50,258 nt of DNA from Pseudolabrys sp. (GCA_030651965.1 JAUSBQ010000370.1:1-50258); one strand, 5' to 3'; positions 25,598 through 44,391 are shown, counted from the stretch's first letter. Numbers and translations are program-made. Notes: generated from the letters alone by a model not told the origin.

Positions 25598-26782
25598 CTA
25601 GTTTTGGCGCTCGAACACCGCGGCGATGCCCTGCCCACCTCCGATGCACATCGTGACCAATGCGTAGCGGCCGCCGGTGCGCGCCAATTCGTACATCGCC
25701 TTGACCGTAATGATCGCACCCGTCGCACCAACCGGATGGCCGAGCGAAATACCGCTTCCGTTCGGATTGACCTTGGCCGGATCGAAGCCGAGTTCGCGCG
25801 CCACGGCACAAGCCTGCGCGGCGAAAGCCTCATTGGACTCGATGGTATCGAACTGGTCCACCGTCATCCCGGCTTTCTTGAGCACCATCCGGGTTGCCGG
25901 TATCGGCCCGAGCCCCATGTACAAGGGCTCGACGCCGGCGTGAGCATAGGCCACTAGCCGCGCCATCGGCTTCAGTCCCAGACGCTTGACCGCGTCCGCA
26001 CTGGCCAGGACGACTGCCGCCGCGCCATCATTGATGCCGGAAGAATTGCCGGCCGTGACACTGCCGCCATCGCGTTTGAACACCGGCTTCAGGTGCTCGA
26101 AATCGCCACCGGACGCGCCAGACCGAACGTGTTCATCGGTGTCGAATATCGTCGGCCCTTTGCGGCTCTTCACGTCGATGCCGACAATCTGCTCTTTGAA
26201 GTATCCGGCCTTAATCGCGTACTCGGCACGCCGGTGGCTTTCGCAAGCCAGCGCGTCTTGATCGCCGCGGGAGATGCCGTTCTTTTCGGCAATGTTTTCC
26301 GCGGTCACACCCATGAGGACCCGGTCGAACGGGTCTCGCAGCGCGCCGTCGAGAACATCGACCATCGGCGCACTTCCCATTTTTGTTCCCCAGCGGATCG
26401 ACGGCGCCTGAAACGGCGAGCGGGACATGTTTTCGGCGCCGCCCGCCACCGCGACGTCACAATCGCCCAGGCGGATGCACTGCGCCGCGGAGATGATGGC
26501 TTGCAGCCCCGAACCGCATAACCGATTCACGGTCAAAGCCGGTGTTTCCACAGGAATGCCGGCATCCACCGCGGCGACACGCGCGATATAGCAATCGCGC
26601 GGTTCCGTGTGGATCACCTGTCCGAAGACGACGTGCCCGACTTCAGCCGGGGCGATGCCGGAACGCCGCAATGCTTCGCCCGTTACCTTGGCTGCCAGTT
26701 GACTAGGCGGCACGTCTTTGAGACTGCCGCCAAAGGTGCCGATCGCGGTGCGAACGGCCGACACGACATAGACTTCATTCAT
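25598..26782 (-). CDS. bktB: Acetyl-CoA C-acyltransferase (beta-ketothiolase, BktB-like)
   Basis: NRLCGSG, NEAF, GHPVGATG and CIGGGQG catalytic motifs. Confidence 0.9.
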   Translation of the reverse strand: MNEVYVVSAVRTAIGTFGGSLKDVPPSQLAAKVTGEALRRSGIAPAEVGHVVFGQVIHTEPRDCYIARVAAVDAGIPVETPALTVNRLCGSGLQAIISAAQCIRLGDCDVAVAGGAENMSRSPFQAPSIRWGTKMGSAPMVDVLDGALRDPFDRVLMGVTAENIAEKNGISRGDQDALACESHRRAEYAIKAGYFKEQIVGIDVKSRKGPTIFDTDEHVRSGASGGDFEHLKPVFKRDGGSVTAGNSSGINDGAAAVVLASADAVKRLGLKPMARLVAYAHAGVEPLYMGLGPIPATRMVLKKAGMTVDQFDTIESNEAFAAQACAVARELGFDPAKVNPNGSGISLGHPVGATGAIITVKAMYELARTGGRYALVTMCIGGGQGIAAVFERQN

Positions 26783-26815
26783 TTTGAAAGTCTCCAGAAA
26801 GAGGCTGCGGCGAAT

Positions 26816-28639
26816 TCAAAAGCGGGCGTCCGGAAATTCGGCCGCCTCGTTGTTCAGAGATTTGACCAGCGCCAGGTGCAAGCGCGCTTTCGGCAGTTCA
26901 TTCGAAAAGAAGTAGCGGCAAGCGCGAATGCGGGCTTCGCCCACGCCGGCCGCCGCTTTTTCCTCGACCGCCATGGCCTGATCGAGCCACATCCAGGCAA
27001 CGACGACGTGGCCAAAGGCGGAGAGAAACGCCGACGCATTGTGTAGCGCCGCATCCGCGCGTTGATCACGCAGACGCGCGGCAACAGCAAGCACATCGTC
27101 CCAGGCGTCGGCGAGCGCGGTCCGCTGCCCGTCCCAGGCGCCGCCGGACGCGGCCCGTTCGATTGTCGCATCGATGCGCTGGCCCAATATTGCCAAACCC
27201 TTGCCGTCATCGCGCAGAATCTTGCGGCCGACCAAGTCGATCGCCTGAATTCCGTGCGTGCCCTCGTGAATGGGATTCAGTCTGTTGTCGCGATAGACTT
27301 GCTCGACGTCAAAATCGCGGGTGTAGCCATAGCCGCCATGGACCTGAATCGCGAGATCGTTGGCCATCAGACCGAATTCCGAAGGCCAGCTTTTCGCCAC
27401 CGGCGTCAACAGACCAAGCAGCGCACTGGCATCCTGCCGCTGAACGTCCGACGTCGCCGCCAATTCCTCGTCCACGAGCTGCGCGCAGTAAAGCACCAGC
27501 GCCAAGGCGCCTTCCGCATAGACCTTCTGCGTCAGAAGCATCCGCTTGACGTCGGCATGCTCGATGATCGGCTGTGGCAGCCGCTCGGCGTCCGTTCGGA
27601 TGACAACCGGCGACCGTCCCTGGACGCGCTCGCGCGCATAGGTGACTGAATGTGAATAGCCGCGGCAGGCCAGCGCCGCAGCGCCGACGCCGACGGCTAT
27701 GCGGGCTTCATTCATCATGCGGAACATGATGGGAAGACCCTGTTCGACATCGCCTATGCGGTATCCGATAGCACCCGCCCGACCTTCGGGCCGATGCTGC
27801 ACACCCTCGCCAAAGGCCAGCAGACAGTTCACCGTCCCGCGATAACCCATCTTGTGATTGAGGCCCGCGACCACCACGTCGTTGCGTTCACCCAGCGAGC
27901 CGTTCGACGCGGGAAGCCACTTTGGCACCACGAACAGCGAAATCCCTTTCGACCCGGATGCGATACGGCCATCGCTGCCCGCCGCCTTGGCCAGCACCAG
28001 GTGAACGATATTCTCAGCCGCATCATGGTCGCCGCCTGAAATCCACATCTTGCTGCCGAACAACCGATAGCGCGGGCCAAGCATTGGATCCGCGCCATCC
28101 ATCTCCGCCCGCGTCGTGATATCGGCAAGCGACGAACCCGCCTGTGGCTCGGACAGGCACATGGTGCCGAACCATCGCCCCTCGATCTGCGGTCTGGCGA
28201 ACGTATCGATCTGGCCGGGCGAGCCGAAACTCGCGAGCAGCCGCGCATTGGCGATCGTCAGCATGGGATAAGCCGCCGTTGCAATATTGGCGGCCATCGT
28301 CAACGCGGTCGAGGCGGTGTGGATGACGGACGGAATCTGCGCGCCACCCAGCGCTTCGTCGAACGTCGCGGCGAACATTCCGGCGTCGGCATAAGCCCGC
28401 AGCGCCGTCTTGATTTCCGGCAGGATGCGCACGCGGTCGCCATCCAGCACCGGTTCGGTGCGGTCCGATGCCTTCCAGTGCGGCGCAAAGTGTTCATCGG
28501 CAAGGCGCGCGCTGAGGTCAAGCACGGCGTCGAACGTCTCTCGGCTATGGTCGGCGAAACGCGGATGCAGCGCAAACCGCGTGATGTCGAGCCAGTCATA
28601 GAGCAGAAAATCGAGCGTGGCGCGGTCGATGAAGGACAT
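26816..28639 (-). CDS. Acyl-CoA dehydrogenase, long form (FadE5/DmdC-like)
   Basis: MCLSEPQAGS, GSKMWISGG, QVHGGYGY and IHEGT (catalytic Glu). Confidence 0.92.
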   Translation of the reverse strand: MSFIDRATLDFLLYDWLDITRFALHPRFADHSRETFDAVLDLSARLADEHFAPHWKASDRTEPVLDGDRVRILPEIKTALRAYADAGMFAATFDEALGGAQIPSVIHTASTALTMAANIATAAYPMLTIANARLLASFGSPGQIDTFARPQIEGRWFGTMCLSEPQAGSSLADITTRAEMDGADPMLGPRYRLFGSKMWISGGDHDAAENIVHLVLAKAAGSDGRIASGSKGISLFVVPKWLPASNGSLGERNDVVVAGLNHKMGYRGTVNCLLAFGEGVQHRPEGRAGAIGYRIGDVEQGLPIMFRMMNEARIAVGVGAAALACRGYSHSVTYARERVQGRSPVVIRTDAERLPQPIIEHADVKRMLLTQKVYAEGALALVLYCAQLVDEELAATSDVQRQDASALLGLLTPVAKSWPSEFGLMANDLAIQVHGGYGYTRDFDVEQVYRDNRLNPIHEGTHGIQAIDLVGRKILRDDGKGLAILGQRIDATIERAASGGAWDGQRTALADAWDDVLAVAARLRDQRADAALHNASAFLSAFGHVVVAWMWLDQAMAVEEKAAAGVGEARIRACRYFFSNELPKARLHLALVKSLNNEAAEFPDARF

Positions 28640-28686
28640 CGGCTAAAGCCCGGCCGGCGCGCACGTGAGACGTTTCGACTGCGATT

Positions 28687-29472
28687 TCAAATGACCGACG
28701 CGCCTCCGTCTACGACAAGGATCTGTCCCGAGATATGCGCGGACGCGTCCGACGCGAGCAGCAGCGCCGCGCCCTTGAGGTCGTTCGGGCCGCCCAATCG
28801 GCCACGCGGCGTGCGGGCGACCAGATCGGCTTCGAAGGTATCGAGCACTTTGCTGGTCATCTTCGATGGAAAATAACCCGGCGCGATCGCATTGACGGTG
28901 ATGCCGTAAGCGCCCCACTCCGCGGCCAGCGCGCGCGTCATGTTGATGACGCCGCCTTTGGTCGCGTTATAGGCAATCGTCGGCGGCATATGGCGCGGAT
29001 GTCCTTTTAGCCCCTCGATCGAGGCCACGTTGAGGATGCGGCCACGGCCGGCCGGAATCATGGCCCGCTTGGCGGCCGCCTGCGCCAGAAGAAACGGCGC
29101 GGTCAGGTTCAGCGCGACGAGTTTGTCCCAGGCTTCGCGCGGATGGTCTTCCGCCGGCGCGCCCCACGACGTCCCCGCATTGTTGACGAGGATGTCGAGC
29201 CTGCCGTGCCGCTCCATCACCGTGTCAACGACCGCGGCCGGCGAGCCGTCTTTGCCGAGATCCGATGCCACCGCCGAGGCGGTGATGCCACGCTGCTTGA
29301 GATGCGCCAGCGCCTCATCGAGCTCGCTTTGCTTGCGCGCCGTGATGACGATCGCCGCGCCAAACTCGCCGAGCGCTTCGGCGATCTGCAAGCCGAGCCC
29401 ACGCGAGCCGCCGGTGATCAACGCAGCCTGACCGGACAGATCGAACAGGCCCTTCAGCGAATCCGCGCTCAC
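28687..29472 (-). CDS. Short-chain dehydrogenase/reductase (gluconate 5-dehydrogenase-like)
   Basis: TGGSRGLG, NNAG and YNATK; GTG start at 29472 overlaps the upstream TGA, AGGAGG RBS. Confidence 0.9.
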   Translation of the reverse strand: MSADSLKGLFDLSGQAALITGGSRGLGLQIAEALGEFGAAIVITARKQSELDEALAHLKQRGITASAVASDLGKDGSPAAVVDTVMERHGRLDILVNNAGTSWGAPAEDHPREAWDKLVALNLTAPFLLAQAAAKRAMIPAGRGRILNVASIEGLKGHPRHMPPTIAYNATKGGVINMTRALAAEWGAYGITVNAIAPGYFPSKMTSKVLDTFEADLVARTPRGRLGGPNDLKGAALLLASDASAHISGQILVVDGGASVI

Positions 29473-30809
29473 GAAACACCTCCTGCGGCTGGCACTTTGT
29501 CCAGATCGGCAAAGCTGCGGCCGGACGCCGCGAGTTCGGCCAGCAACGGCGCCGGCGTCCAGTTTTGATCGTGCCGCGCGTGCAGCTCGACCACCGCGGC
29601 ATGGACGCGCGCCAGTCCGACGCTGTCCGCCCAATGCATCGGGCCGCCACGCGCGGCCGGGAAGCCCATGCCGTAGACGTAACAAAGATCGATATCGCCC
29701 GGCCGCGTCACGATGCCTTCGCCGAGAAGCCGCGCGCCTTCGTTGACAAGGGCATAGAGGCACCGGGTGAGGACTTCCTCGTCGGAAATCGGCCGCCTGA
29801 CGATTCCGAGGCGGTTTGACTCCGCGACGATCATCGCTTCGACGTCCGGATCGGGTTGCGCCGAGCGGGGACCGGAGGGATAGCTGTACCAGCCGGCATT
29901 GGTCTTGCTGCCGAGGCGGCCGCGCTCGACCAGCAGATCGGCGAGCCGCGAATACCGCATGTCTTTAGGCCACGTCTTGAGCTGGCGCTGCCGCACGAAC
30001 CAGGCGACGTCCTGACCCGCCATATCGAGCATGGCGCAGGGCCCCATCGCCAGACCGAACGCGGTCAGGACCCGGTCGATGTCCTGCGGCAAGGCACCCT
30101 CTTCCATCAGGCAATCGGCCTGCCGGAGATAGGGATAAAGCATCCGGTTGGCGCAGAAGCCGTCGCAAACGCCGACAGTGACGCCGACCTTGCCGACGTC
30201 GCGCGCCAGCGCCACCGCCGTCGCCAGCGTCGAGGCATCGGTCTTGGCGCCGCGAACGATTTCCAGCAGGCGCATGACATGGGCGGGACTGAAGAAATGC
30301 AGGCCAAGCACGTCCTGCGGCCGCGATGTGACCGCGGCAATCGCATCGACATCGAGCGCCGAGGTGTTGGTGGCGAGGATGGCGCCGGGTTTGGCGATGC
30401 GATCGAGACGGGTGAAGATGTCCGTCTTGACCGCCATGTCCTCGAACGCGGCGTCGATGATGAGGTCCGCGGTGGCGAGCGCGGCGAAGTCGGTCTCGCC
30501 CTCGATACGCGCCAGCCTCGTAGCGGCCTCCGCGTCGGACAGCGTCCCTTTCGTCTGCGCGCGCTGATAGACATCGCGTATTCGGCCGAGCCCCCGGCCG
30601 AGCGCCTCGCCGTCCTTCTCCACCAGCGTGACCGCAAGACCGGCATTGGCGAAAACCATCGCGATGCCGCTGCCCATGGTTCCGGCGCCGACGACACCGA
30701 CCCGCGTCACCGGACGTCGCGGCGTCGCGGCGTCGATCCCCGGGACGTGGGATGCCGCCTCTTGCGCGCGCGCTAGGTGGGTGGCTGCGTCGGACTCCGG
30801 TGGAGCCAT
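29469..30809 (-). CDS. 3-hydroxyacyl-CoA dehydrogenase (FadB/EHHADH-like, without the crotonase domain)
   Basis: GAGTMG, ATNTS and HFFSPA; two C-terminal helical domains. Confidence 0.9.
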   Translation of the reverse strand: MAPPESDAATHLARAQEAASHVPGIDAATPRRPVTRVGVVGAGTMGSGIAMVFANAGLAVTLVEKDGEALGRGLGRIRDVYQRAQTKGTLSDAEAATRLARIEGETDFAALATADLIIDAAFEDMAVKTDIFTRLDRIAKPGAILATNTSALDVDAIAAVTSRPQDVLGLHFFSPAHVMRLLEIVRGAKTDASTLATAVALARDVGKVGVTVGVCDGFCANRMLYPYLRQADCLMEEGALPQDIDRVLTAFGLAMGPCAMLDMAGQDVAWFVRQRQLKTWPKDMRYSRLADLLVERGRLGSKTNAGWYSYPSGPRSAQPDPDVEAMIVAESNRLGIVRRPISDEEVLTRCLYALVNEGARLLGEGIVTRPGDIDLCYVYGMGFPAARGGPMHWADSVGLARVHAAVVELHARHDQNWTPAPLLAELAASGRSFADLDKVPAAGGVS

Positions 30810-30868: not shown

Positions 30869-32086
30869 TTACGTCCAGATGTCAGTTTGCTTGCCGAGTT
30901 CTATGCGCGCAATCTGGTCGATGTGGACCTCGTCCGGACCGTCGGCCAATCGCAGCGTCCTGGCCAGGGCCCACCCGGCGGCCAGGCCGAAATCGTCGCA
31001 TACGCCGCCGCCGCCATGAATCTGCACGGCGCGATCCAGGACGTTCTGGGCCATCCGCGGCGCGACCACCTTGATCATGGCGATCTCGGCACGCGCCGCC
31101 TTGTTGCCGACCGTGTCCATCATGTGCGCGGCCTTGAGCGTGAGCAACCGCGCCTGATCGATTTCCATGCGGCTGAGCGCCACCGCATCACGCAGCATGC
31201 CGTGCGCGCTCATCGGCTTGCCGAAGACGTGGCGGCTTTTGGCGCGGGCGATCGCAGACTCCAGGGCGCGCTCGGCCAGACCAATGAGACGCATACAATG
31301 ATGAATACGTCCCGGCCCGAGCCGCCCCTGCGCAATCTCAAAGCCGCAACCTTCACCGAGCAGAATATTGGCTGCCGGGACACGCACATTCGCGAATGAG
31401 ACCTCCATATGACCGTGCGGCGCGTGGTCGTATCCGAATACGGATAGCGGGCGAACAACGGTAACGCCCGGCGTGTCCATCGGCACAAGAATCATCGACT
31501 GTTGCCGATACGCCTCTGCCGCTGGATCGCTCTTGCCCATAAAAATGAGAATACGGCAGCGCCGATCGCCGGCCCCCGAGGTCCACCACTTGCGGCCGTT
31601 GACGATATAGTCGTCACCGTCGCGCCGGATCGACGCCTGGATATTGCGTGCATCGGAAGACGCAACGTCGGGCTCCGTCATCGCGAATCCCGAGCGGATT
31701 TCCCCGGCCAGCAGAGGCGTGAGCCACTGCTGTTTCTGGTCCGCGCTGCCGTAGCGGACAAGAACTTCCATGTTGCCCGTATCGGGCGCCGCACAATTGA
31801 AAACTTCCGGCGCGATCGGCGACCGCCCCATGATCTCGCACAAGGGGGCATATTCGAGGTTCGTGAGCCCGGCGCCATGGTCGCTATCCGGAAGGAACAG
31901 GTTCCAAAGGCCGGCGCTCCGAGCCGCTGCCTTCATCTCTTCCATGATAGGGGGGGAGGTCCACCGGTCTTCTTGAGCGGCGTGCTGCTCCACGTAGATA
32001 CGCTCGTTCGGATAAACGAAGTCGCGCATAAACTCTTGGCAGCGCACTATTAAATTCAATGTTTTGGACGAGTAATCGAAATTCAT
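30869..32086 (-). CDS. Acyl-CoA dehydrogenase-family protein of the ACAD10/11 / LvaC type
   Basis: [38 protein letters not shown] and [10 protein letters not shown]. Confidence 0.92.
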
Positions 32087-32130: not shown

Positions 32131-32174
32131 CTGTCCGACAGTTCAACAGTCCATTTATCCGACAGTTGTTGACA
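32131..32174. promoter_or_regulatory. Cluster of TGTC-N-GACA-type boxes; candidate FadR/GntR operators
   Basis: CTGTCCGACAG palindrome (32131-32141) plus degenerate TTATCCGACAG and TTGTTGACAG copies in a divergent promoter. Confidence 0.65.
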
Positions 32175-32217: not shown

Positions 32218-33264
32218 ATGAGTTTCGCAGACGTCACTGATATTCGTTCGGGTCACGAGTTCGATACCGGTCGCCTCGCCCACTATCTTACAGCACACCT
32301 CAAGGGGTTTTCCGGCAGCCTGGCGGTCCGCCAATTCCGCGGTGGCCAATCCAATCCGACTTTCTTTCTGGAGAGCGGCCCTAACAGGTACGTATTGCGG
32401 AAAAAGCCACCGGGACAATTGCTGCCCTCCGCGCACATGATCGAGCGGGAGTACCGGGTGATGCATGCGCTGCGCGATTCAGGACTCCCGGTCATGAACA
32501 CCCACCTGCTGTGCGAGGACCCGTCGGTTATCGGCACCCCCTTCTACATCATGGATTTCGTCGAAGGCCGCATCTTCCGCGATCCTGCCTTGCCCGGCCT
32601 GTCGCCTGCCGAACGCGGCGCGATTTACACCGATATGGCCGCCGTCATGGGCAAACTGCATGCGATCGACTGGCGCGCGGTCGGGCTTGAGAGTTTCGGC
32701 AAACCGGCCGGCTACCTTGTGCGCCAGATCGCACTGTGGACTCGCCAATACGAAGCCGCCAAGACCCATCCGATTCCATCGATGGACGAACTGATCGCGT
32801 GGCTTCCAGCCCATATCCCCGCCGACGAGCGAACCACGATCGCCCATGGCGACTTTCGCCTCGAGAACCTGATGTACCACCCGACCGAACCGCGCGTCAT
32901 TGGCGTGCTCGACTGGGAACTGGCGACGTTGGGACATCCGTTCGCGGATGTCGCCTATAACTGCATGATCTGGCACCTCGATCCGTCGACGCCGAATCTG
33001 GGCGGGCTCGCCGGCCGCGATCTTGCCGCGCTCGGAATTCCTTCGGAAGCCGAATACATCTCCCGCTATGCCACCAGCGCCAATATTCCCGGCATCGACA
33101 ACTATTCGTTTTTTCTCGCCTTTGCCTTTTTCCGTTTCGCGGCAATCGCGCAAGGTGTCTATGCGCGCGCCCGCGCCGGCAACGCCAGTGCGCCGAACGC
33201 ACTCCAGGTCGGTCTGCTTGCAACCCCGCTCGCAGACCTGGGCTGGAAGGCCGCGCAAAGCTGA
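32218..33264 (+). CDS. APH/choline-kinase-fold phosphotransferase of the ACAD10/11 N-terminal / LvaA type
   Basis: GGQSNPT, LRKKPPG, HGDFRLEN and LDWEL; GGAGG RBS. Confidence 0.92.
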   Translation: MSFADVTDIRSGHEFDTGRLAHYLTAHLKGFSGSLAVRQFRGGQSNPTFFLESGPNRYVLRKKPPGQLLPSAHMIEREYRVMHALRDSGLPVMNTHLLCEDPSVIGTPFYIMDFVEGRIFRDPALPGLSPAERGAIYTDMAAVMGKLHAIDWRAVGLESFGKPAGYLVRQIALWTRQYEAAKTHPIPSMDELIAWLPAHIPADERTTIAHGDFRLENLMYHPTEPRVIGVLDWELATLGHPFADVAYNCMIWHLDPSTPNLGGLAGRDLAALGIPSEAEYISRYATSANIPGIDNYSFFLAFAFFRFAAIAQGVYARARAGNASAPNALQVGLLATPLADLGWKAAQS

Positions 33265-35297: not shown

Positions 35298-36004
35298 CAC
35301 GCCTCCGTTCCGAGATAGGCCGCGATAACGGTCGGGTTGGCCCTGACTTCAGCGCAGGTGCCTTCGCTTAAGGATCGCCCAAGATGCAGGACGCTGATGC
35401 GGTCGCAGATCGAGAACACGACCTGCATGTCATGTTCGACCAGCAGCACAGTCACATTCCATCGCGTCACCAGGTCCCGCAGGGTGCGGGCAAGCCCGAG
35501 AGATTCCTCCATCGTCAGCCCGGCCGCTGGCTCATCGAGCAGCAGCACGCTCGGCCGCCCCACCAGAGCGAGCGCCAGATCGAGCCGGCGCTGATCGCCG
35601 TAGCTGATCTCGCCTGCCGGCACGCCGGCAAGCGCGACCAAACCGAATTCCGACATAACCTCGTCGATTTCAGCTTCTTCGACCGCCCATGAGGCAATAC
35701 GCAATTGCTGCTCGACGGTCAGGTCGGGGAAGATGTTGGTGCGCTGGAATGAGCGCGCCATGCCGCGCTTGCGGCGTTCCTGCGGCGTCAACCGGCTGAC
35801 GTCCTCACCGTTGAGCCGCACGCTGCCGTCCCAGTTGACCGCACGACCGGAAAGCACGTCGATCAGCGTCGATTTTCCGGCGCCATTGGGCCCGATCAGA
35901 CCACGGATCTCGCCGCGCTTGACGCCGATATCGACCGCGTCCAGCGCGGTGAACCCACCGAACCGGCGCGACAGGCGGACACCTTCAATTGCAAGTTCAG
36001 TCAT
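35297..36004 (-). CDS. ABC ATP-binding protein (LivG-like)
   Basis: GPNGAGKST, ISYGDQR, LDEPAAG and VEHDM; ATGA overlap sets the start. Confidence 0.93.
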   Translation of the reverse strand: MTELAIEGVRLSRRFGGFTALDAVDIGVKRGEIRGLIGPNGAGKSTLIDVLSGRAVNWDGSVRLNGEDVSRLTPQERRKRGMARSFQRTNIFPDLTVEQQLRIASWAVEEAEIDEVMSEFGLVALAGVPAGEISYGDQRRLDLALALVGRPSVLLLDEPAAGLTMEESLGLARTLRDLVTRWNVTVLLVEHDMQVVFSICDRISVLHLGRSLSEGTCAEVRANPTVIAAYLGTEA

Positions 36005-37005
36005 CGCCGTTGCCTCCGTCGCCACTGCTTGACGGCAAGGCCGATAATGCCCTGCGGCATGGTGAGCGTGACGACGACGAGAATCCCGCCGACGATCGCC
36101 GGCCAATATTCGGCGAACTGACCAGCGACGTCTTTGATATAGAAAAGGACGACGGCGCCGACGGCGGGCCCGATGACAAACTTGGCGCCGCCGATGATCG
36201 ACATGATCAAGGCAAAACCGGACAAGCTCCAATGGAACATCTGCGGCGCGATGTATCCGTTGTAGACGGCCTGAAGCACACCGGCGATGGCGGCGACGAA
36301 CGCGGCGATGGCGTAGACCAAAGCGGGGGGCACCGTCGTCGAATAGCCGATGAAGCGGGCGCGCTCCTCGTTATCGCGAATCGCGGCCGCGATCTGACCG
36401 GTTCGGCTGCGCGTAAACAGCGTGAGCGAGACCAGAACCAGCACGAGAATCGACCAGGCCAAAACGACCATGACGCCGGGGTCCTGCAAGCGGCTGGCCG
36501 AAAAACCGAAGAATTTCGACGGCAACGTGAATGACATGCCATCGTCGCCCATGGCCAGTTCGCGCCAGCGGAAGGCGACTTCGTAGAATGCCTGCCCCAC
36601 CGCGAGGGTCAGCATGGCGTGAGCAACGCCGGTCACGCGGGCGACAACGAGGCCGAGAAGGAAGGCGGCCAATGTCGGGATCGCGAGCGCGAGCAGTAGC
36701 GCCAACTCGGGACCGGCGAGATTCCGCGCTACCAGAATGCCGAATGCATAGCCACCCAGCCCGAAAAATGCCGCCTGGCCAAAACTGACACGTCCATTCT
36801 GCAGGAAGAGAAAACCGACACTGGTTGCCAGCAATGCATCGAACAAGGCCTGCGCCAGCAAAGACAGTGTGATCTTGGCAAAGCCAATCCACGGCAGAAC
36901 AAAACCCGCCACCAACGCCGCCGCGCCGATCAGCAACACGACCAGCGCTTTGTTCGCCGTTCGCGGCCTCGACGGAGCGAGCGTACCCTGCGCGGTGGGG
37001 TTCAT
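36001..37005 (-). CDS. ABC permease (LivM-like)
   Basis: VSFGQAAFFG, MLTLA and IRDNEERA; ATGA overlap. Confidence 0.9.
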   Translation of the reverse strand: MNPTAQGTLAPSRPRTANKALVVLLIGAAALVAGFVLPWIGFAKITLSLLAQALFDALLATSVGFLFLQNGRVSFGQAAFFGLGGYAFGILVARNLAGPELALLLALAIPTLAAFLLGLVVARVTGVAHAMLTLAVGQAFYEVAFRWRELAMGDDGMSFTLPSKFFGFSASRLQDPGVMVVLAWSILVLVLVSLTLFTRSRTGQIAAAIRDNEERARFIGYSTTVPPALVYAIAAFVAAIAGVLQAVYNGYIAPQMFHWSLSGFALIMSIIGGAKFVIGPAVGAVVLFYIKDVAGQFAEYWPAIVGGILVVVTLTMPQGIIGLAVKQWRRRQRR

Positions 37006-37850
37006 GTGCGCGACCCCGCGAAGCCCGTCGGACGCCAGATCAAGATACCCACCATCAGCAAGAACGGCAGAATGGTCGCTGCCCAAGGCAAATAGACCGC
37101 GCCGAAATTGTGAATCTGGCCGATGAGAAGGGCCGCGATAAAGGCGCCTGCGAAACTGCCAAGACCGCCGATGACAACGACGATGAATGAATCGATCAGG
37201 ATGTAATTGCCCATCGTCGGCGACAGCGACAACAAAGGCCCGGCGACGACACCCGACAGACCGGCAAGCGCGGTTCCCAAGCCCACCACGATCAAGCTCA
37301 GGCTGTCCACGTTTATGCCCTGGATCGACGTGATGCGCGGGTCTGTGCTGGCGGCGCGCACATAAAGACCAATGCGCGTGAACCGAAGCCAGGCCGTCAG
37401 CGACAGCGCGATCGCCACCGCGACGGCAATAACGAACAGACGGTAGACCGGGAACGGTTCGCCGAAAATGTCGACGGTGCCGGCCAGCAGTGGCGGCACC
37501 GGATAACGCAAATAGGCCTTGCCCCAAATCGCCGTGACAACCGTTTCAAGAATGAGCATCAGGCCGAAGGTCACCAGTACGGTAACAATGTGATCCTGCT
37601 TGCGCAGCGTCCGGAAGACGGTGGCGTCGAGCGCGCAACCGACAATGGCCATCGCCACCATCGACACGACCAACCCGCCCCACCAGTAGCCGGCCGCTGA
37701 CACCGCGAAGCCGATATAGGCCCCGAGCATAAACAGCGCGCCGTGGGCGAAATTCACCACCTCACGCAAGCCGAAGATCAGCACAAGGCCAACCGCCAGC
37801 AGATAAAGCAGGCCGCCGTACACAATGCCATTCAGAATCTGGATAAACAT
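37002..37850 (-). CDS. ABC permease (LivH-like)
   Basis: GLVLIFG...VNFAHG, VVIGGLGS and RPTG. Confidence 0.92.
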   Translation of the reverse strand: MFIQILNGIVYGGLLYLLAVGLVLIFGLREVVNFAHGALFMLGAYIGFAVSAAGYWWGGLVVSMVAMAIVGCALDATVFRTLRKQDHIVTVLVTFGLMLILETVVTAIWGKAYLRYPVPPLLAGTVDIFGEPFPVYRLFVIAVAVAIALSLTAWLRFTRIGLYVRAASTDPRITSIQGINVDSLSLIVVGLGTALAGLSGVVAGPLLSLSPTMGNYILIDSFIVVVIGGLGSFAGAFIAALLIGQIHNFGAVYLPWAATILPFLLMVGILIWRPTGFAGSRT

Positions 37851-37860: not shown

Positions 37861-38631
37861 TCATCCTGCCGTAAAGCCGCCATCGACGTAGATGGTTTGG
37901 CCCGTCACGAAACGGGCCGCGGGCGATGCGAGAAACACCAGAACGCCGACAACATCTTCGACTTCGCCGAGCCGGCCGAGCGCGGAGCGCGCGAGCACTT
38001 TTTCGTAGAGCAGCGGCTGGGTGCGGATGAGATCGCGGTTGAGATCGGTGACGATGACGGTGGCCCCGATCGTATTGACCGTGATGCCGAAGGGCCCGAG
38101 CTCGAAGGCAACCGAAGCGCCGAAATTGGCGAGCCCCGCCTTGGTCGCGGAATAGACCGTGCGATTGGCCATACCGCGCCCTGACAGAATAGAGCCCATG
38201 TTGATGATGCTGCCTTTGCGCCGCTCCATCATGGGTTTGGCGAAGATGCGTGTGCACAGATAGGCGCCGGTCAAGTTGACGTCGACAACCTTGCGCCACT
38301 CTTCGACCGACAGGTCCATCAAGGACTTCGGCGACGTGATGCCGGCATTGTTGAAAAGGATATCGACGTGGCCGAACTTGGCCACCACGGCGTCGCACGC
38401 CGCCTGAACGGACGCTTCGTCGGTGACGTCGGCCTCGACCACGAGCGCGCGGCGCCCGGCATCCTCGACCGCGTGAGCCGTCTCTCGCAGTTTGGCGACG
38501 TTGCGTCCGAGGACGGCAATATCCGCGCCGGCCTCGGCCAGGCCGATCGCGGACTCATTGCCGATGCCGCCGCCGGCGCCGGTGACGACCGCGACATTTC
38601 CCTCAAGGCTGAATAGCTTGCTGTTGCTCAT
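37861..38631 (-). CDS. Short-chain dehydrogenase/reductase
   Basis: TGAGGGIG, NNAG and YSATK. Confidence 0.92.
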   Translation of the reverse strand: MSNSKLFSLEGNVAVVTGAGGGIGNESAIGLAEAGADIAVLGRNVAKLRETAHAVEDAGRRALVVEADVTDEASVQAACDAVVAKFGHVDILFNNAGITSPKSLMDLSVEEWRKVVDVNLTGAYLCTRIFAKPMMERRKGSIINMGSILSGRGMANRTVYSATKAGLANFGASVAFELGPFGITVNTIGATVIVTDLNRDLIRTQPLLYEKVLARSALGRLGEVEDVVGVLVFLASPAARFVTGQTIYVDGGFTAG

Positions 38632-38635
38632 AAGG

Positions 38636-39409
38636 TCACATCGCCATCTGGCCGCCGTCCACCGGCAGGGCGACGCCGGTGATCATGCGGGCTTCATCCG
38701 ACACAAGGAAAAGAGCCGCGGCCGCGACGTCTTCGGGCTCCGGCATGCGCGCCAGCGGAATGGTGGCGCGAAATCGATTCATCGCCTCGTCACGGTCGCT
38801 CGCCATGCCGGGCAAGAACGCCTCCAGCATTGGCGTCGCAATCACGGTCGGGCACAGGGCGTTGACGCGAATGTTCTGCGGCGCCAGTTCGAGCGCAAGA
38901 CTGCGCACCAGCCCGACGATGCCGTGCTTGGCGACGGTATAAAGGCTGAAATTCGGCTTCGCCTTGAGGCCCTGGAGCGAGGACGTATACAGCAAAGAAG
39001 CGCCGGCCGGATTGCGCTTGGCGCTGTCGCGCAGGTGCGGCAGCGCGGCGCGCGTCATCTGCAGCACGCCGAACAGGTTGGTGCGCAGAACGCGCTCCAG
39101 CGTCGCGTCGTCCACCGATTCAAATGAGCCGGTAAACGGCCCGCCGGCATTGTTGTGGACGATATCGAGAGCGCCGAAGGTCTTGACCGCGAACGCGACG
39201 GCGGCTTCATCGTCAGCCGTCTTCGTGTGATCGCAAGGGATGAAGGCTGCGTTGCCGCCGATAGATTTGGCAACGGCCTCGCCGCGATCGCCATCGATAT
39301 CGGTGATGATAACGCGGGCGCCTTCCGCCGCGAAGCGGATGGCCACGGCACGGCCGAGCCCCGAGCCGGCGCCGGTAACGAGTGCGACTTTGCCGGCAAG
39401 CCTGCTCAT
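38636..39409 (-). CDS. Short-chain dehydrogenase/reductase
   Basis: TGAGSGLG, NNAG and YTVAK. Confidence 0.92.
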   Translation of the reverse strand: MSRLAGKVALVTGAGSGLGRAVAIRFAAEGARVIITDIDGDRGEAVAKSIGGNAAFIPCDHTKTADDEAAVAFAVKTFGALDIVHNNAGGPFTGSFESVDDATLERVLRTNLFGVLQMTRAALPHLRDSAKRNPAGASLLYTSSLQGLKAKPNFSLYTVAKHGIVGLVRSLALELAPQNIRVNALCPTVIATPMLEAFLPGMASDRDEAMNRFRATIPLARMPEPEDVAAAALFLVSDEARMITGVALPVDGGQMAM

Positions 39410-39600
39410 GGCGCTGACTCGGCGCTATCGACCGGTGTCGCCAGCGCGAGCAACGCCGCGATGCGGCCGCGCAAGAAGCGATACTGGCCCGCCATCAAGG
39501 CATCCTGCGTGCCGCACAGCGTATCGGCGTCGGCGAGCATCCGCGACAATGTCGCGTGGTCGCGGGCGGTCGGATCCGCCACTTCCTTGGCATTCCTCAA
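39406..39600 (-). CDS. Small hypothetical protein (64 aa)
   Basis: Fills the gap between ligase and SDR; TTG start after a GGGAGAG RBS; its stop overlaps the SDR start as ATGA. Confidence 0.6.
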   Translation of the reverse strand: MRNAKEVADPTARDHATLSRMLADADTLCGTQDALMAGQYRFLRGRIAALLALATPVDSAESAP

Positions 39601-39611: not shown

Positions 39612-41045
39612 CTACAGTCGATAGCCCTGTTGTCGCTCGTCTTTCCAGCGGCGGGCTTTGTAGCTAAATTCCGGCAGTTCACTGCGTTGGCATTGCGTGA
39701 GCACCATCCAAAGATTGGTGCGCTCCTTGATGGTCGCCCGAATGGCCTCGATAATGCGCTCGCGCGCCGCGGGCTCCATTGCCGCTGCGGCGTCCGTCAG
39801 GGCAAGCCGCATTTCGATCTCGGTCTTGCCGTCGGCGCTGGTGTAGACGCGGCCAGCATATTCGGCGACCTCGCCATAGGAGAACACGGCGGCGTCGATG
39901 GCCGACGGCCAGACATTGTTGCCGCGAATTTTCAGCATGTCGTCGAAGCGGCCGACCGTGCCGCATTCGATCGCGTTCCAGGCACGGCCTGCCGCGGTGT
40001 CGCGGTAAGAGATAAAGCGCGCGGAATCTCCGGTGCGGAAGCGAATGACGGGCGAGCCTTCGATCGCCAGATTGGTCACCACCAGTTCGCCGGTTTCGCC
40101 GGACGCGACCGGTTCGAGCGTCGTCGGGTGCAGCACCTCGAACAACGTCTCCCATTCGAACATATGCATCAGCCCGCGCCCGCCGGCGCGGGTTATGGCT
40201 CCGTCGGCGCAGGTCGAAGCGCCGAATCCGGCGCATTGCGTGCTGCCATAACCTTCCTGCAGCCTACAGCCCCACAGCGTCTCGATCCGCTGCGCCCATT
40301 CGATCGGGTAGCCCTCGGCGGCGATGAACAAAGTCCGCAACGTCGGAAATGCCCGCTTCGGCTCGAGGCCGCGCCGCAGCAGCGCTTCCGTCAATGTATG
40401 GAGATAATTGGTCGAGGCGTAGATGAAGTTGACTTCGCCGATCCGTAGCATGAGATCGATCTTGGCGTCGGTCGACAGCGTGCCGCCGACATGGAAGGCG
40501 GTCGCGCCGATGATGCGCAGGCCTTCGCCCGGCCCCCATCCGCCGGTGGTGAGACCGCCCGACGGCACGCAGTTGACGGCGATATCGCCAGGCCGGAGCC
40601 CGGCCAGAAACCAGGGCAGCGCGTGGTAATACCCCTGCATATGAACGTCGCGCTGGCTGCGGCCGTAGATTTCCTGGCCCTGGCCCGACGTGCCGCCGGT
40701 CATGTTCACGAGCGCGACATCGCTTCGAGAAATGCCGAGGCGGTCGCCGAACGGCGCATGCTCGGTCTGGTCGGCGAGAAAGTCCGCCTTGCTCGACAGC
40801 GGGAAGCTCTTGCAAAACGCGTCGAGCGATCCGATCGCGTCAGGCGCAAGACCGGCGGCATTCATACGGCGCCGGTAATATCCGCTGGACACATGCAGGC
40901 GCGCGAGTTGGTGGCGCAGCTTTCGGAGCTGCAACGATTCCAGTTCGCCGCGCGAGAGAGACGCGAGACGCGCCAAGCGCGCGGAGTCCATAAATGGAAT
41001 GTCCGCCGCGTCGCGTCCCACACTTGTTTGCGCGTGCGTACTCAT
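39612..41045 (-). CDS. Phenylacetate-CoA ligase (PaaK)-family acyl-CoA synthetase
   Basis: ESLQLRKLR, TGGTSG P-loop, GYGSTQ, RFRTGD and GRFDDMLKIRGNNV. Confidence 0.88.
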   Translation of the reverse strand: MSTHAQTSVGRDAADIPFMDSARLARLASLSRGELESLQLRKLRHQLARLHVSSGYYRRRMNAAGLAPDAIGSLDAFCKSFPLSSKADFLADQTEHAPFGDRLGISRSDVALVNMTGGTSGQGQEIYGRSQRDVHMQGYYHALPWFLAGLRPGDIAVNCVPSGGLTTGGWGPGEGLRIIGATAFHVGGTLSTDAKIDLMLRIGEVNFIYASTNYLHTLTEALLRRGLEPKRAFPTLRTLFIAAEGYPIEWAQRIETLWGCRLQEGYGSTQCAGFGASTCADGAITRAGGRGLMHMFEWETLFEVLHPTTLEPVASGETGELVVTNLAIEGSPVIRFRTGDSARFISYRDTAAGRAWNAIECGTVGRFDDMLKIRGNNVWPSAIDAAVFSYGEVAEYAGRVYTSADGKTEIEMRLALTDAAAAMEPAARERIIEAIRATIKERTNLWMVLTQCQRSELPEFSYKARRWKDERQQGYRL

Positions 41046-41464
41046 TGCTGCTCTGGAACCGGCTCGAAGAGTGGAAGCGTGATCTCAGGCGTGACCTGCC
41101 GGAAGATGACACGAACGCGCATTCCCGCCGTCACCTTTTCTGGCTCGACGCCAACGATATTGCTCGGAATACGCACGCCCTCGTCGAGCGCGATGAGCGC
41201 CACAACGTAAGGGACATCCGCCGCATAGACATCGCGCGGAACCGGATGACGCACGACGATCCAGCTAAACACGCTGCCGAGGCCTTTGCTGTCGATCCAC
41301 TCGTGTTCGGGTGAGTTGCACTTCGGGCAGTAAAAAGTCGGCGGAAATCGGTGGTGTCCGCACTGCTTGCAGCGCTGCATGCTCAGCTTGCCCTGACGGC
41401 AGGCATCCCAAAACGGTTTGGTTTCGACGTTCTCGGCGGGAAGCGGCTTGTTGTATGGGGTCAT
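41042..41464 (-). CDS. DUF35 Zn-ribbon/OB-fold protein (ChsH2 C-terminal-like)
   Basis: PFWDA, CKQC...CPKC, VPYVVALIALDEG and GMRV. Confidence 0.92.
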   Translation of the reverse strand: MTPYNKPLPAENVETKPFWDACRQGKLSMQRCKQCGHHRFPPTFYCPKCNSPEHEWIDSKGLGSVFSWIVVRHPVPRDVYAADVPYVVALIALDEGVRIPSNIVGVEPEKVTAGMRVRVIFRQVTPEITLPLFEPVPEQQ

Positions 41465-42621
41465 CAGTTCCTCAGCACCATGGCGCTGCCACAGGTCATG
41501 GCGCCGGCCGTTGTCAGGCATGTCTCGATATCGGCGACTTGGCGCGCACCGGCGTCGCCGCGCAACTGCTGCACCGCCTCGATCACGTGATTGAGCCCGT
41601 GGATATAACCTTCCGACAGCAGGCCGCCCGCGGTGTTGAGTGGCAATGCGCCGTCGCGTGCGATGCGTCCGCCCTGAACGAACGGGCCGCCCTCGCCTTC
41701 CTTGCAGAAGCCGAGACCCTCAAGCTGCATCAACACGCTGTAGGTGAAGCAGTCGTAGATTTGGGCGATATCGATATCCGAAGGCCCCATACCGGCGCTG
41801 CGCCAGAGATCGTCGGCGATATATTTGGCGTAATTATGCGATTGGTCGGGCCAGCGAATGGCGTCGAACAGATCCTCGCCCTGATTCGGTCCACCGCCAT
41901 AGGCGCCGCCGGTGATATAAACCGGCTTGCGCTTGAGGTCGCGCGCACGCTCTGCCGACGTCACCAGCACGGCGCAGGCGCCGTCGGTCTCAAGGCAGAT
42001 ATCGAGCATGCGGAACGGCTCAACGATCATGCGTGAATTGCGGTAATCGTCCATCGTAATGGGGTCGCGCTGCATGGCACGCTCATTGTTGACGGCATTG
42101 GATCGGAACGTGACCGCAAGCTCGCCAAGTTGTTCGCTATTCGTGCCGTATTCGATCATGTGGCGCCGGCACCACATGGCCATCGCTTGCGGATAGGTGA
42201 TCCACCCGAACGGCGCAGTGAATTGCGTGATGCCATGCGCGGAGAGATCGCGCCCGCCGCCGAGCCGGAACCCGGAGCGACCATTCATAGCGCGATAACA
42301 CAGAACGGTTTCGGCAAGTCCCGCCTCGATCACAGCGGCTGCCGTCAGCACGATCATGTTCGCCGCATTGCCGCCGCTGAGAAAATCGTTGGCGTAGCGC
42401 GCCGCCGGCACTCCGATTTCCGTCGCCACCGAAATCGCCGGCACTGAATCATTGAAATTGAAGCTGACGAAACCGTCGATGTCAGCGACCTTTAGTCCGG
42501 AATCGTCAATGGCCTTAAGACAGGCTTCCGACGCGAGACTGCGCACGGTTCGGCCCGAATTCTTGGAGAACTCGGTCCAGCCAATGCCGGCGATCGCATA
42601 TTTGTCCCGCAATGCGTACAT
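41464..42621 (-). CDS. Thiolase-fold Ltp2/SCP-x-like protein, probable CoA-thioester retro-aldolase
   Basis: DICLETDGA, AQIYDCFT and NTAGGLLSEGYIHG; no N-terminal catalytic Cys (LSGGNAA). Confidence 0.85.
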   Translation of the reverse strand: MYALRDKYAIAGIGWTEFSKNSGRTVRSLASEACLKAIDDSGLKVADIDGFVSFNFNDSVPAISVATEIGVPAARYANDFLSGGNAANMIVLTAAAVIEAGLAETVLCYRAMNGRSGFRLGGGRDLSAHGITQFTAPFGWITYPQAMAMWCRRHMIEYGTNSEQLGELAVTFRSNAVNNERAMQRDPITMDDYRNSRMIVEPFRMLDICLETDGACAVLVTSAERARDLKRKPVYITGGAYGGGPNQGEDLFDAIRWPDQSHNYAKYIADDLWRSAGMGPSDIDIAQIYDCFTYSVLMQLEGLGFCKEGEGGPFVQGGRIARDGALPLNTAGGLLSEGYIHGLNHVIEAVQQLRGDAGARQVADIETCLTTAGAMTCGSAMVLRN

Positions 42622-42639
42622 AAAGTTCGATTCCTTCGA

Positions 42640-43428
42640 TCAGCGCGAAAAGACGGGCTTACGCTTTTCTTTGAACGCGACCAGACCTTCGGTCGCGTCA
42701 TGTTCAGTGGTGGCGTAACGGAGAACAAATTCTATTTCCTGGCGCAGGCCGCTATCGAGGTCGGCGGTCAGCGTCAGGTTGGCGAGATACTTGGCGCCCC
42801 GCAAACCGACCCGGCTCTTCTCGCCCAGCCGCGTCACGAGAGCCTCGGCGGCAGCAAGAAGCTGGGTATCGGGGACCACCTCGTTGACAAGGCCGATCTG
42901 TTTGGCCTCGGCGGCTGACACAAGATCGCCAGTGAGCATGAGGTGCTTGGCCCGCAAAAGTCCGACAGCGCGCGGCAGCCTTTGCGACCCGCCGGCACCC
43001 GGCAATTGCCCGAAGTTTAGATGTCCATCGCCGATTTTTGCCGACTCTGCAGCTATCGCCAGATCGCAGGCGAGCAAAAGCTCAAGTCCGCCGGCCACGC
43101 AGACGCCGTTGACGGCGGCGAGATAAATCTTCGACGACGCCTCGATGGCTTTGAGTGCCTGCAGGAAGTCATTGAGAAAGGCCGCGAATTTATCGGGGTT
43201 TTGATAGAGGCCGATGTAGCCGTCGAGGTCCCCGCCTGCCGAGAAGCTGCGGCCGCGTCCCGTAATAATGACGGCCATAACCTCCGGCTTCGCCTCGATG
43301 GCGGCCACGGCCGCCTTGAGTTCCCGCACGGTCGCCCAATCAAGCGGGTTCAGCTTGTCCGCGCGCGTAAAAGTCAGCCAGGCGCAGGCGCCTTTCAACT
43401 CAATCTCGATGTTGTGGCCGCTCGCCAT
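42640..43428 (-). CDS. Enoyl-CoA hydratase/isomerase
   Basis: FSAGGDL, AGGLE, GAGGSQRLPR and C-terminal AFKEKRKPVF. Confidence 0.92.
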   Translation of the reverse strand: MASGHNIEIELKGACAWLTFTRADKLNPLDWATVRELKAAVAAIEAKPEVMAVIITGRGRSFSAGGDLDGYIGLYQNPDKFAAFLNDFLQALKAIEASSKIYLAAVNGVCVAGGLELLLACDLAIAAESAKIGDGHLNFGQLPGAGGSQRLPRAVGLLRAKHLMLTGDLVSAAEAKQIGLVNEVVPDTQLLAAAEALVTRLGEKSRVGLRGAKYLANLTLTADLDSGLRQEIEFVLRYATTEHDATEGLVAFKEKRKPVFSR

Positions 43429-43481
43429 CAAAACCCGCGCCTCATCCCTAGACAATCTCGCCAAATAGGCCAACAGTCCGT

Positions 43482-43492
43482 TTGTCGGACAA
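43482..43492. promoter_or_regulatory. TTGTC-G-GACAA palindrome; candidate FadR/GntR operator
   Basis: Palindrome with perfect arms between the divergent crotonase operon and the FadR-type gene. Confidence 0.65.
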
Positions 43493-43590
43493 TTGCAGAT
43501 AGACTATCATTCTGTGAGGGGTCGTCAAGTGAGCGCCGAATCGTGACCCGAAGTGCTAAGGGCAATGTCAGAGTTCTGTGAGGCAGCGAC

Positions 43591-44391
43591 GTGCAGGAAA
43601 ACCACGAATTCAGCCGGATCGAGCGAGCGCCGGCTTACCGTCTCGTCTATGACGCCATCGAGCGGCAGATTCTCGCAGGGCGTTTGCGTGTCGGTGACCC
43701 CCTGCCGGCGGAAATTCAGTTGGCCGACCAGTTCGGGGTGAACCGCTCGACGGTCCGCGAAGGCATCAGGCTACTCGAACAAAGCGGGCTGGTTGAACGC
43801 GACGGCGGCAAACGGCCGCGCATTTCGGTGCCGCATTATCTCGACCTTGCCTCCTCCGCCAGCCGCGCGCTCATTCTTCATTCGGTGACCTTCCGCGAAT
43901 TGTGGGAAGCTTCGATGGTGCTGGAGCCGGCGATCGCGGAGCATGCGGCGCGCCACATCGATCAAAGCGGGCTGGACGAGTTACTCGGCAATCTCACGGC
44001 CATGCAGGCAGAGGTTGTCAGCATCGAGGGTGGCAAGCCGGCGGATGTGCTCGCCTTCGTCGGGCTCGATCGGGAGTTTCACGAAATACTCGCAAAGGTG
44101 GGCGGCAACCGGGTGCTTGCCCTTGCGCATGAACCGGTCACATCGCTTTTCATCCCGACCGGTCAGGTCATCCTGCCGCGGCTCAAGACCTATCGCCGTG
44201 TGCTCGACGCCCACCGCTACATCTTCGATTGCCTGGCAGCCAAAGACCATGCCGGCGCGCGAAGCTGGATGCATAAGCACATGGACGACTTCCGCCGCGC
44301 TTACGAACTGACCGCCTTGTCGCTGGACGCGCCGCTCGACGCCGTCAGTCTCAGCATGTCCGAAGCCACGCCTTCGATGCGAAGCCGCTAA
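43591..44391 (+). CDS. FadR/GntR-family transcriptional regulator
   Basis: LPAEIQLADQFGVNRSTVREGIRLLE; FCD domain (DREFH). Confidence 0.92.
   Translation: MQENHEFSRIERAPAYRLVYDAIERQILAGRLRVGDPLPAEIQLADQFGVNRSTVREGIRLLEQSGLVERDGGKRPRISVPHYLDLASSASRALILHSVTFRELWEASMVLEPAIAEHAARHIDQSGLDELLGNLTAMQAEVVSIEGGKPADVLAFVGLDREFHEILAKVGGNRVLALAHEPVTSLFIPTGQVILPRLKTYRRVLDAHRYIFDCLAAKDHAGARSWMHKHMDDFRRAYELTALSLDAPLDAVSLSMSEATPSMRSR

Follow-up and report, generated by a model that had tools for sequence, protein, structure and literature searches.

The subject of this report is a block of 19 neighbouring genes at positions 25598-44391 of a 50,258-nucleotide stretch of DNA from Pseudolabrys sp. (GCA_030651965.1, JAUSBQ010000370.1); the whole stretch is called the window, positions are counted along it, and the genome in which searches were made comprises 4.66 Mb and is 90% complete. 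Pfam, NCBIfam and PDB comparisons place in the block, starting from the plus-strand gene of a FadR-type regulator (43591-44391), minus-strand genes for a crotonase, an Ltp2/Sal-type thiolase-fold protein, a DUF35 protein, a PaaK-fold ligase-like protein, the small protein orf64, SDR1, SDR2, four ABC transporter components and a periplasmic binding protein (SBP), then a plus-strand APH-fold kinase gene (32218-33264) and, again on the minus strand, genes for an ACAD11-like acyl-CoA dehydrogenase (ACAD), a 3-hydroxyacyl-CoA dehydrogenase, SDR3, a 607-residue ACAD and a BktB-like thiolase. Every gene named in an initial annotation of this DNA was found there with the family then given. That annotation treated the locus as a single ~19-kb block; it does act as one unit, as judged by a common operator and by synteny, although it is built of two minus-strand operons, crotonase to SBP (43428-33339) and ACAD11-like to BktB (32086-25598), with an oppositely oriented kinase gene. 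Sixty related ligase loci were compared, an orthologue being a protein with at least 40% identity over at least 60% of the length, within 10-kb flanks that were often ended by contig ends. The genes flanking the block (GntR, CMD, HIBADH, PrpD and FmdA) have orthologues in none of the 60, which fits the limits proposed initially. The GC content of the block resembles that of the remaining contig, and sigma-70 promoter and terminator scans gave background level only. We conclude that the block is a real, conserved and uncharacterised regulon that joins two known chemistries in a new way.

The thiolase-fold protein is encoded at 41464-42621 (minus strand) and has TcLtp2 as its best PDB match (6OK1, E 1e-81). 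Its FLSGGNAAN segment aligns with the Gly-rich loop of 6OK1, and the nucleophilic cysteine of thiolases is not there; the six commonest variants of the protein, accounting for 50 of 56 orthologues, also are without it. All 56 orthologues contain YDCFT and SE[GA]YIHG, which hold the equivalents of Tyr294 and Tyr344 of Ltp2. The His296 of Ltp2 (YDHF) is replaced by cysteine, as in Sal, and the Tyr302/Cys304 dyad of Sal is present in YDCF; at the Tyr344 position the protein has Tyr, not the Gln352 of Sal. The catalytic roles of Ltp2 Tyr294/Tyr344 and Sal Tyr302/Cys304 are described in the available part of PMC12329534. Absence of the nucleophilic cysteine, together with both Ltp2 tyrosines and the catalytic cysteine of Sal, makes it very likely that the protein performs retro-aldol chemistry, as predicted from its sequence. 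The DUF35 protein (41042-41464, minus strand) is a zinc ribbon with four cysteines plus an OB fold (PF12172+PF01796), a free-standing protein of 141 residues with the crotonase upstream; the MaoC-DUF35 hydratase arrangement of ChsH2 or Shy is not found in the block. The crotonase (42640-43428, minus strand; GHxNFxQLPG-type motif) keeps the first catalytic glutamate, and a histidine replaces the second in 47/47 orthologues, so it does not have the two glutamates of a canonical enoyl-CoA hydratase. It may be an unusual hydratase, isomerase or ring hydrolase. Comparison of the crotonase and the SBP with the PDB gave distant or generic matches only, from which no ligand inference is possible.

The second chemistry is represented by the kinase and the ACAD11-like enzyme. 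The kinase, of ACAD10/11 (LvaA-like) type, has intact HGDFRLEN, with the catalytic Asp and Asn, and VLDWE motifs, and matches PDB 3dxp (E 5e-116) and ACAD11 (E 1e-94). The ACAD11/LvaC-type enzyme (30869-32086, minus strand; PDB ACAD11, E 8e-140) has the R626 equivalent, the HCMR motif and the catalytic Asp in LADGPD, the features that define ACAD10/11 and LvaC in the available text of PMC12440821. Its gene is the only close ACAD11-type gene found in the genome, the next match being 35% identical. The residues thus bear out both assignments of the initial annotation, that of the aldolase and that of the ACAD10/11-type module. A second APH kinase, 45% identical, is encoded on another contig of the genome (C167, 4222-5271), where no other block gene was matched.

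The protein encoded at 39612-41045 (minus strand) resembles acyl-CoA ligases of the fold found in PaaK and in 2-hydroxyisobutyryl-CoA ligase (HCL), and has their A7, A8 and A10 motifs. Its invariant EGYGSTQ carries Gln where PaaK has Glu, and its pocket segment, as we take this segment to be, is less aromatic than that of PaaK and has a Trp in common with HCL; the predicted structure matches PaaK and HCL about equally, with pLDDT below 50 in the pocket loops, and gives no basis for naming a ligand. The next gene, orf64 (39406-39600, minus strand), encodes a small, helical, conserved protein of 64 residues, with no Pfam family and no usable Atlas match. It is found in 89 of 108 ligase loci, directly downstream of the ligase in 88, and in none of eight long aldolase loci without a ligase match, a control weakened by two of the eight ending soon after DUF35; in Bosea it is relocated yet retained. 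The protein is thus a real family and a companion of the ligase.

Among the remaining genes, all on the minus strand, SDR1 (38636-39409) has an acidic residue after beta-2 and is likely NAD-linked, by a cofactor rule that we assume to hold here, and SDR2 (37861-38631), a conserved member of the core, is likely NADP-linked. Two permeases and two ATPases form a LIV-type importer (34602-37850), accompanied by the SBP (33339-34529; PF13458), which has a signal peptide and no close liganded structure (best PDB match E 2e-28). The 3-hydroxyacyl-CoA dehydrogenase (29469-30809) is FadB-like, matching C-terminal FadB/FadJ only (profile positions ~282-705), without the hydratase domain. SDR3 (28687-29472; PRK08213 subfamily; 30 of 60 loci) is a candidate 4-oxoacyl-CoA reductase, the 607-residue ACAD (26816-28639) has the catalytic Glu motif NPIHEGT, and the thiolase (25598-26782) is of the BktB subfamily, its 672 bits against PRK09051 exceeding the cut-off of 565 and lying below the BktB equivalog cut-off of 725. 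In a related locus, L005 with its extension L072 (3981-12413), the orthologue of the 607-residue ACAD is split by ~7 kb of other DNA.

Both halves appear to be under one regulator. The FadR-subfamily protein (GntR plus FCD domains) is likely their repressor, and the operators accompany FadR. One operator (43472-43495), between crotonase and FadR, comprises the palindrome TTGTCSGACAA (43482-43492) and a half-site; the other (32131-32168), in the divergent promoter of kinase and ACAD, comprises the palindrome at 32131-32141 and a 24-nucleotide copy at 32145-32168. The 24-mer common to both divergent intergenic regions, with the core TTGTC[C/G]GACAA, is identical at 20 of 24 positions, against at most 17 of 24 in 200 dinucleotide shuffles. 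A pattern built from these two sites themselves has two matches in the genome at up to four mismatches, both in the block, and the bare 11-mer palindrome occurs at 25 sites. Since the pattern derives from the block's own sites, conservation in relatives is the stronger test: by alignment, 11 of 13 window-like genome loci have the palindrome at both positions, L006 at one and L015 at none. Two genomes further removed (L064 and L068) have it ahead of their kinase-SDR3-ACAD-BktB group, and Bosea has it in the divergent promoter between LvaC and aldolase; sphingomonad loci, which are without the FadR of the block, have no palindrome at the core. A conserved palindromic operator of FadR type lies at the promoters of both halves, with binding predicted. 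The crotonase start is probably the ATG at 43428, because the TTG at 43473 falls within the operator. On a plasmid of Sphingopyxis macrogoltabida 203 (L083, 5908-31198) six operator-like palindromes are spread across aldo-keto reductase, molybdo-enzyme, P450 and TonB genes, suggesting a larger regulon.

Conservation extends to the genes themselves. Among the 60 ligase loci, orthologues were found of DUF35 in 59, the aldolase in 58, SDR2 in 55, the crotonase in 48, FadR in 32, the kinase in 22 and the LvaC-like gene in 10. A whole-genome search, covering 50 of the 60 genomes, put the kinase no more than 25 kb from the ligase in 34/50 and the LvaC-like gene in 19/50 (72 of 93 ACAD rows entered the latter count, and none of the 21 omitted lies within 25 kb of the ligase); the rough chance expectation for kinase linkage is ~1/50, given 110 kinase matches in 50 genomes of ~5 Mb. 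Bosea lathyri has all block genes in a different order with three operators, the Bosea plasmid pB32-2 has the whole set reshuffled, and in the Sphingopyxis macrogoltabida 203 plasmid FadR, crotonase, aldolase, DUF35, kinase and an ACAD with HCMR are contiguous, without a ligase; two further loci (L134 and L155) are arranged similarly. From 226 metagenome loci 80 were kept, 32 of them at least 11 kb long; crotonase-aldolase-DUF35 is present in all 32, the ligase in 25 and the LvaC-like gene in five within the fetched flank. The initial annotation had staked its proposal on the two halves being syntenic in relatives: they are, staying together through rearrangements, also in distantly related bacteria of soil and water, and having a common conserved operator.

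Fifty kinases, 29 of them classed as linked and 21 as unlinked, were also placed on a tree (L141 was dropped as partial, L068 counts as linked by its operator, its ligase lying on a different contig, and for rows from fragmented genomes the label 'unlinked' may be wrong). Linkage requires at least three changes on this tree, and four in all bootstrap trees, the sphingomonad kinases nesting among unlinked ones; linked kinases are thus drawn from at least three lineages. The aldolase operon itself contains kinases from several lineages, placed directly after DUF35, ligase or SDR2. In a quick tree the aldolases form one tight clade; every main branch of it has linked loci, and unlinked ones are scattered. 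The closest named related loci are from Xanthobacteraceae, including Pseudolabrys. The system is rare: a ligase match at E 1e-40 or better was found in one of 60 relatives, and that match is 33% identical; with the top candidates per genome scored, the aldolase clade occurs in 4 of 400 genomes of the family and in none of 400 from the phylum. One locus titled Bacteroidales (L016) has the block at 73-90% identity to the alphaproteobacterial type, and misbinning or mislabelling is likely.

Some clues to the substrate come from what the block does not have and from what replaces its kinase elsewhere. The Pfam scan found no oxygenase and no paa genes in the block; because there is no oxygenase, the block is expected to carry its substrate through to acetyl- or propionyl-CoA with CoA chemistry and nothing else, and the aromatic acid envisaged in the initial annotation is unlikely, the ligase pocket also differing from that of PaaK. 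At L156, which has no kinase or ligase match, DUF35 is directly followed by a flavin monooxygenase with a fingerprint that presumably marks the Baeyer-Villiger type, and a CoA-transferase is present. Other kinase-less loci have luciferase-like monooxygenases or KstD-like flavoproteins, and L012 an acetyl-CoA-synthetase-type ligase. The enzymes that replace the kinase suggest a ketone as aldol product, removable either way. L156 (3311-12109) and L164, neither with a ligase or kinase match, as a whole show the aldolase core followed by a Baeyer-Villiger-like gene, a PfkB kinase, a KDPG aldolase, a crotonase, a family III CoA-transferase and an amidohydrolase.

Our preferred reading, tentative and given somewhat less than an even chance, is of a single FadR-repressed, oxygen-independent catabolic pathway in which aldol cleavage would come first and a 4-oxo acid would then pass through the Lva/ACAD10-11 route. 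In the model, the ABC system would import a beta-branched acid, namely a branched di-, oxo- or hydroxy-acid. After CoA activation, the 607-residue ACAD and the Glu/His crotonase would form a tertiary 3-hydroxyacyl-CoA, which a dehydrogenase could not oxidise, and the Ltp2/DUF35 aldolase would release acetyl-CoA and a ketone still bearing a carboxylate. The PaaK-fold ligase, probably with orf64, would activate this 4-oxo acid, an SDR would reduce the 4-oxo group, and SDR1 and SDR2 may set stereochemistry. Subsequently the kinase and the ACAD11-like enzyme would turn the 4-hydroxyacyl-CoA into 2-enoyl/3-hydroxyacyl-CoA, to be finished by the 3-hydroxyacyl-CoA dehydrogenase and BktB; the preference of BktB for C5 substrates favours this scheme. 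The simplest skeleton that would use every enzyme runs from 3-methyladipyl-CoA through 3-hydroxy-3-methyladipyl-CoA to acetyl-CoA plus levulinate and on to acetyl-CoA plus propionyl-CoA, in parallel with the HMG-CoA step of leucine breakdown. The skeleton is our own construction, and 3-methyladipyl-CoA is improbable as the exact substrate. A bolder and unlikely version would be a carboxylase-free, oxygen-free bypass of the beta-methyl block, in which a thiolase-fold 'homo-HMG-CoA lyase' would split 3-hydroxy-3-methyladipyl-CoA, or a related acid of terpenoid or steroid origin, into acetyl-CoA and levulinate, and a new ligase subfamily would need orf64 as activator, much as some adenylation domains need MbtH. 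If true, the levulinate/ACAD10-11 route would gain a natural upstream source in soil bacteria.

Several observations weigh against the preferred pathway. It requires two activations and the block encodes one ligase, in which Gln replaces, in 59/59 orthologues, a Glu that is usually essential in such enzymes. The kinase is in only 9 of the 32 long metagenome loci within the fetched flank; it is not within 25 kb of the ligase in 16/50 genomes, many of them on short contigs, but three single-record genomes, two of Stella and one of Sphingopyxis, are real exceptions, with the kinase at a distance of 0.7-2.3 Mb. In five genomes scanned for the operator, none was found at the known kinase positions. 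Locus counts overstate the linkage, kin not being independent, and the steroid C/D-ring-like neighbours of the core in sphingomonads hint at a ring substrate. As to the coupling of the two modules that the initial annotation proposed, kinase linkage speaks for it; against it, 8 of 13 genomes with a window-type kinase have no LvaC-like gene that reaches 70% identity, seven of these having only 61-66% paralogues elsewhere and one having none, and in six of the eight the kinase directly faces the dehydrogenase, as if a clean deletion had occurred. Homologues of the kinase and of the ACAD11-like enzyme each occur in 49/50 genomes (G069 has no kinase match at 1e-60), often unlinked, and therefore could act in trans.

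The single ligase would suffice if the same enzymes worked in reverse order, a rather unlikely course in which a 4-hydroxy acid with a beta branch (either a gamma-lactone after ring opening or a 2-hydroxy-ring-acetic acid) would be activated, phosphorylated and eliminated first, the 2-enoyl-CoA would be hydrated to a tertiary alcohol, and the aldolase would yield acetyl-CoA plus a ketone or 3-oxo acid. The 2-enoyl- and 3-hydroxyacyl-CoA made by LvaC and ACAD10/11, as reported in the available portion of PMC11342911, are of the aldolase's substrate class; the minimal Sphingopyxis operon, ECH-aldolase-DUF35-kinase-ACAD, does without a ligase, and lactonase-type genes (amidohydrolase_2, SGL) lie near several loci. 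However, the 607-residue ACAD and part of the SDR set would have no clear job, LvaC would become essential, yet its cognate gene is missing in the eight close relatives mentioned, and kinase-less loci keep the same aldolase core. The frequent lack of linkage of the kinase and ACAD11-like homologues would be expected if the left half were a general-purpose kit for the beta-oxidation of hydroxy fatty acids, of a sort common in Proteobacteria, that has come under the same FadR and does not act on the aldolase's carbon skeleton. Retention of the kinase where LvaC is lost agrees with this, and the kinase may phosphorylate another alcohol: ACAD10-family kinases, including prokaryotic ones, also act on alkylglycerols, according to the accessible part of PMC13596139. 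Such separate roles are nevertheless improbable, given that several kinase lineages sit inside the aldolase operon; this repeated recruitment into one transcription unit is hard to explain without common chemistry.

The sphingomonad loci bring in a ring substrate. There, as also in a Rhodobacterales metagenome-assembled genome, an operon with IpdAB-, EchA20-, IpdC- and ScdM-like genes adjoins the core, and in 10/14 such sphingomonad genomes ACAD-SDR-kinase(-LvaC) genes lie 14-23 kb from the core. The crotonase, aldolase, DUF35, ligase, orf64 and SDR2 could accordingly remove an acetate side chain from a ring acid of steroid-like or terpenoid type to give a cyclic ketone, with the kinase, ACAD and BktB handling later open-chain fragments or related substrates; candidates would be cyclohexylacetate-type acids or breakdown products of abscisic acid (ABA), among whose metabolites dehydrovomifoliol and a 1-hydroxy-ring-acetic acid are reported in the available parts of PMC7996341 and PMC9599779. 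The PaaK fold of the ligase, a steroid aldolase as closest solved relative of the aldolase, and the KstD-like, luciferase-like and Baeyer-Villiger-like genes near other loci are consistent with this. In sphingomonads this IpdA has a paralogue, a second copy within the genome at 54-56% identity (2/5 genomes), which points to a non-standard ring, and KshA had no strong match in two of the island carriers tested. We hold ring clipping to be distinctly unlikely: the block has no ring-opening oxygenase, ring-opening genes have no close match in its genome (at most 38% identity), IpdA is unmatched in Pseudolabrys Root1462, Bosea lathyri and Stella vacuolata (3/5 genomes), and the ligase and aldolase matches include no plasmid from Novosphingobium P6W, a strain that degrades ABA and whose chromosome was outside that search. 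With ring genes missing and an importer present instead, the data suggest that the block's genome and these three other hosts import an intermediate made upstream by others. As an observation apart, the conserved sphingomonad island of ~40 kb (L084, 3381-41401, and L055, L075 and L076) contains the IpdAB-paralogue operon, a Rieske oxygenase, a luciferase-like monooxygenase, a DHDPS-like lyase and an aminotransferase, with a P450 in the L076 copy, and likely degrades a non-standard, possibly nitrogen-containing ring compound.

The rest of the window holds other gene groups. A separate cluster at 20228-25568, not kept beside the block in relatives, encodes LysR, MmgE/PrpD, crotonase, 3-hydroxyisobutyrate dehydrogenase-like, CMD and GntR proteins; its PRK06127-subfamily crotonase (22514-23161, minus strand) has 215 residues against a 269-position model, with the stop just ahead of the PrpD-like gene, and is possibly truncated. 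At 1995-13208 are a molybdo-hydroxylase fragment, CoxD/CoxE-like AAA and VWA genes, an amidohydrolase, an SGL-isochorismatase fusion, a GntR and a TRAP transporter, and at 44527-50062 a formamidase, a zinc-ribbon protein and a second LIV-type (urea-like) ABC transporter.

The regulon is of interest on several counts. Steroid CoA esters are the substrates of the Ltp2/Sal aldolases characterised so far, and the regulon provides a non-steroid aldolase that can be put to the test; little is known of the natural substrates that maintain LvaA/LvaC-type enzymes so widely in bacteria, and the regulon is a possible natural source of 4-oxo/4-hydroxy acids. It contains three unusual proteins, the Glu/His crotonase, the Gln-variant ligase and orf64. 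A C-C lyase yielding levulinate or other keto acids would be useful in biocatalysis, and since cultured hosts exist, the inducer could be found by simple screens.

The pairing of an Ltp2/DUF35 aldolase with an ACAD10/11-type kinase was not found described in the full-text literature, most subscription journals being outside its coverage; the claim of the initial annotation that no described pathway joins both modules thus met no contrary case in the literature searched. The papers found there deal with steroid aldolases, the lva/ACAD10-11 route and ABA; also consulted were PMC6692424, PMC13619911, PMC11397614, PMC6895838, PMC12882949 and bioRxiv 10.1101/2021.05.19.444901. Some candidate equivalents were set aside. 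Judged from tables and not sequences in the part available, the 'lipid-transfer protein' EGO55_13720 of the SD-cluster of N. tardaugens and the operon EGO55_13525-13565 differ in gene order and neighbours. The Rhodococcus oestrogen aldolase AedK has a MaoC-DUF35 fusion as partner and a different layout (PMC8913865). For the ABA pathway the odds are low, there being no P6W plasmid among the matches, and the available part of the P6W data paper (PMC6938937) names no induced genes. The tiamulin-induced locus 2 of a Sphingomonas, as far as the excerpt of bioRxiv 10.1101/2024.12.16.628731 goes, has like gene types and a locus-tag spacing unlike that of the island.

Among characterised systems, the Ltp2-ChsH2(DUF35) aldolases of Thermomonospora curvata and M. 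tuberculosis (6OK1) are alike in the thiolase fold without nucleophilic Cys, the Tyr294/Tyr344 equivalents and the DUF35 partner; the block differs by YDCF instead of YDHF, a free DUF35 instead of a MaoC fusion, a crotonase as partner hydratase and the absence of close steroid ring genes from the genome. The Shy-Sal bile-acid aldolase of Comamonas testosteroni (9MYR; PMC12329534, as far as available) is likewise proteobacterial, with the Tyr/Cys dyad in YDCx and a DUF35 partner, but the block's aldolase scores 157 bits against it and 278 bits against TcLtp2, has Tyr where Sal has Gln352, and no aldehyde dehydrogenase is encoded in the block. With Pseudomonas putida's lva operon and mammalian ACAD10/11 it has in common the APH kinase and HCMR-type ACAD with all tested catalytic residues, and SDRs and a CoA ligase alongside; unlike the lva operon it has a PaaK-fold ligase and not LvaE, FadR and not the sigma-54 LvaR, an ABC importer and a joined aldolase core. 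DUF6285 (PF19802), which we take to be LvaB, was not found in the genome at its 90% completeness, and lvaB is likewise missing in P. citronellolis; the three SDRs of the block are candidate counterparts of LvaD. The ligase resembles PaaK and HCL in fold and motifs and departs from them in its 23-29% identity, a score of 143 bits against the PaaK cut-off of 646, the altered pocket segment, the invariant Glu-to-Gln change and the neighbouring orf64. Finally, the leucine and citronellol routes pass the beta-methyl block by carboxylase, hydratase and HMG-CoA-lyase type enzymes. The preferred pathway would be like them in hydration to a tertiary 3-hydroxyacyl-CoA followed by C-C cleavage freeing a C2 unit; unlike them, the block encodes neither carboxylase nor HMG-CoA lyase, and a thiolase-fold aldolase would make the cut.

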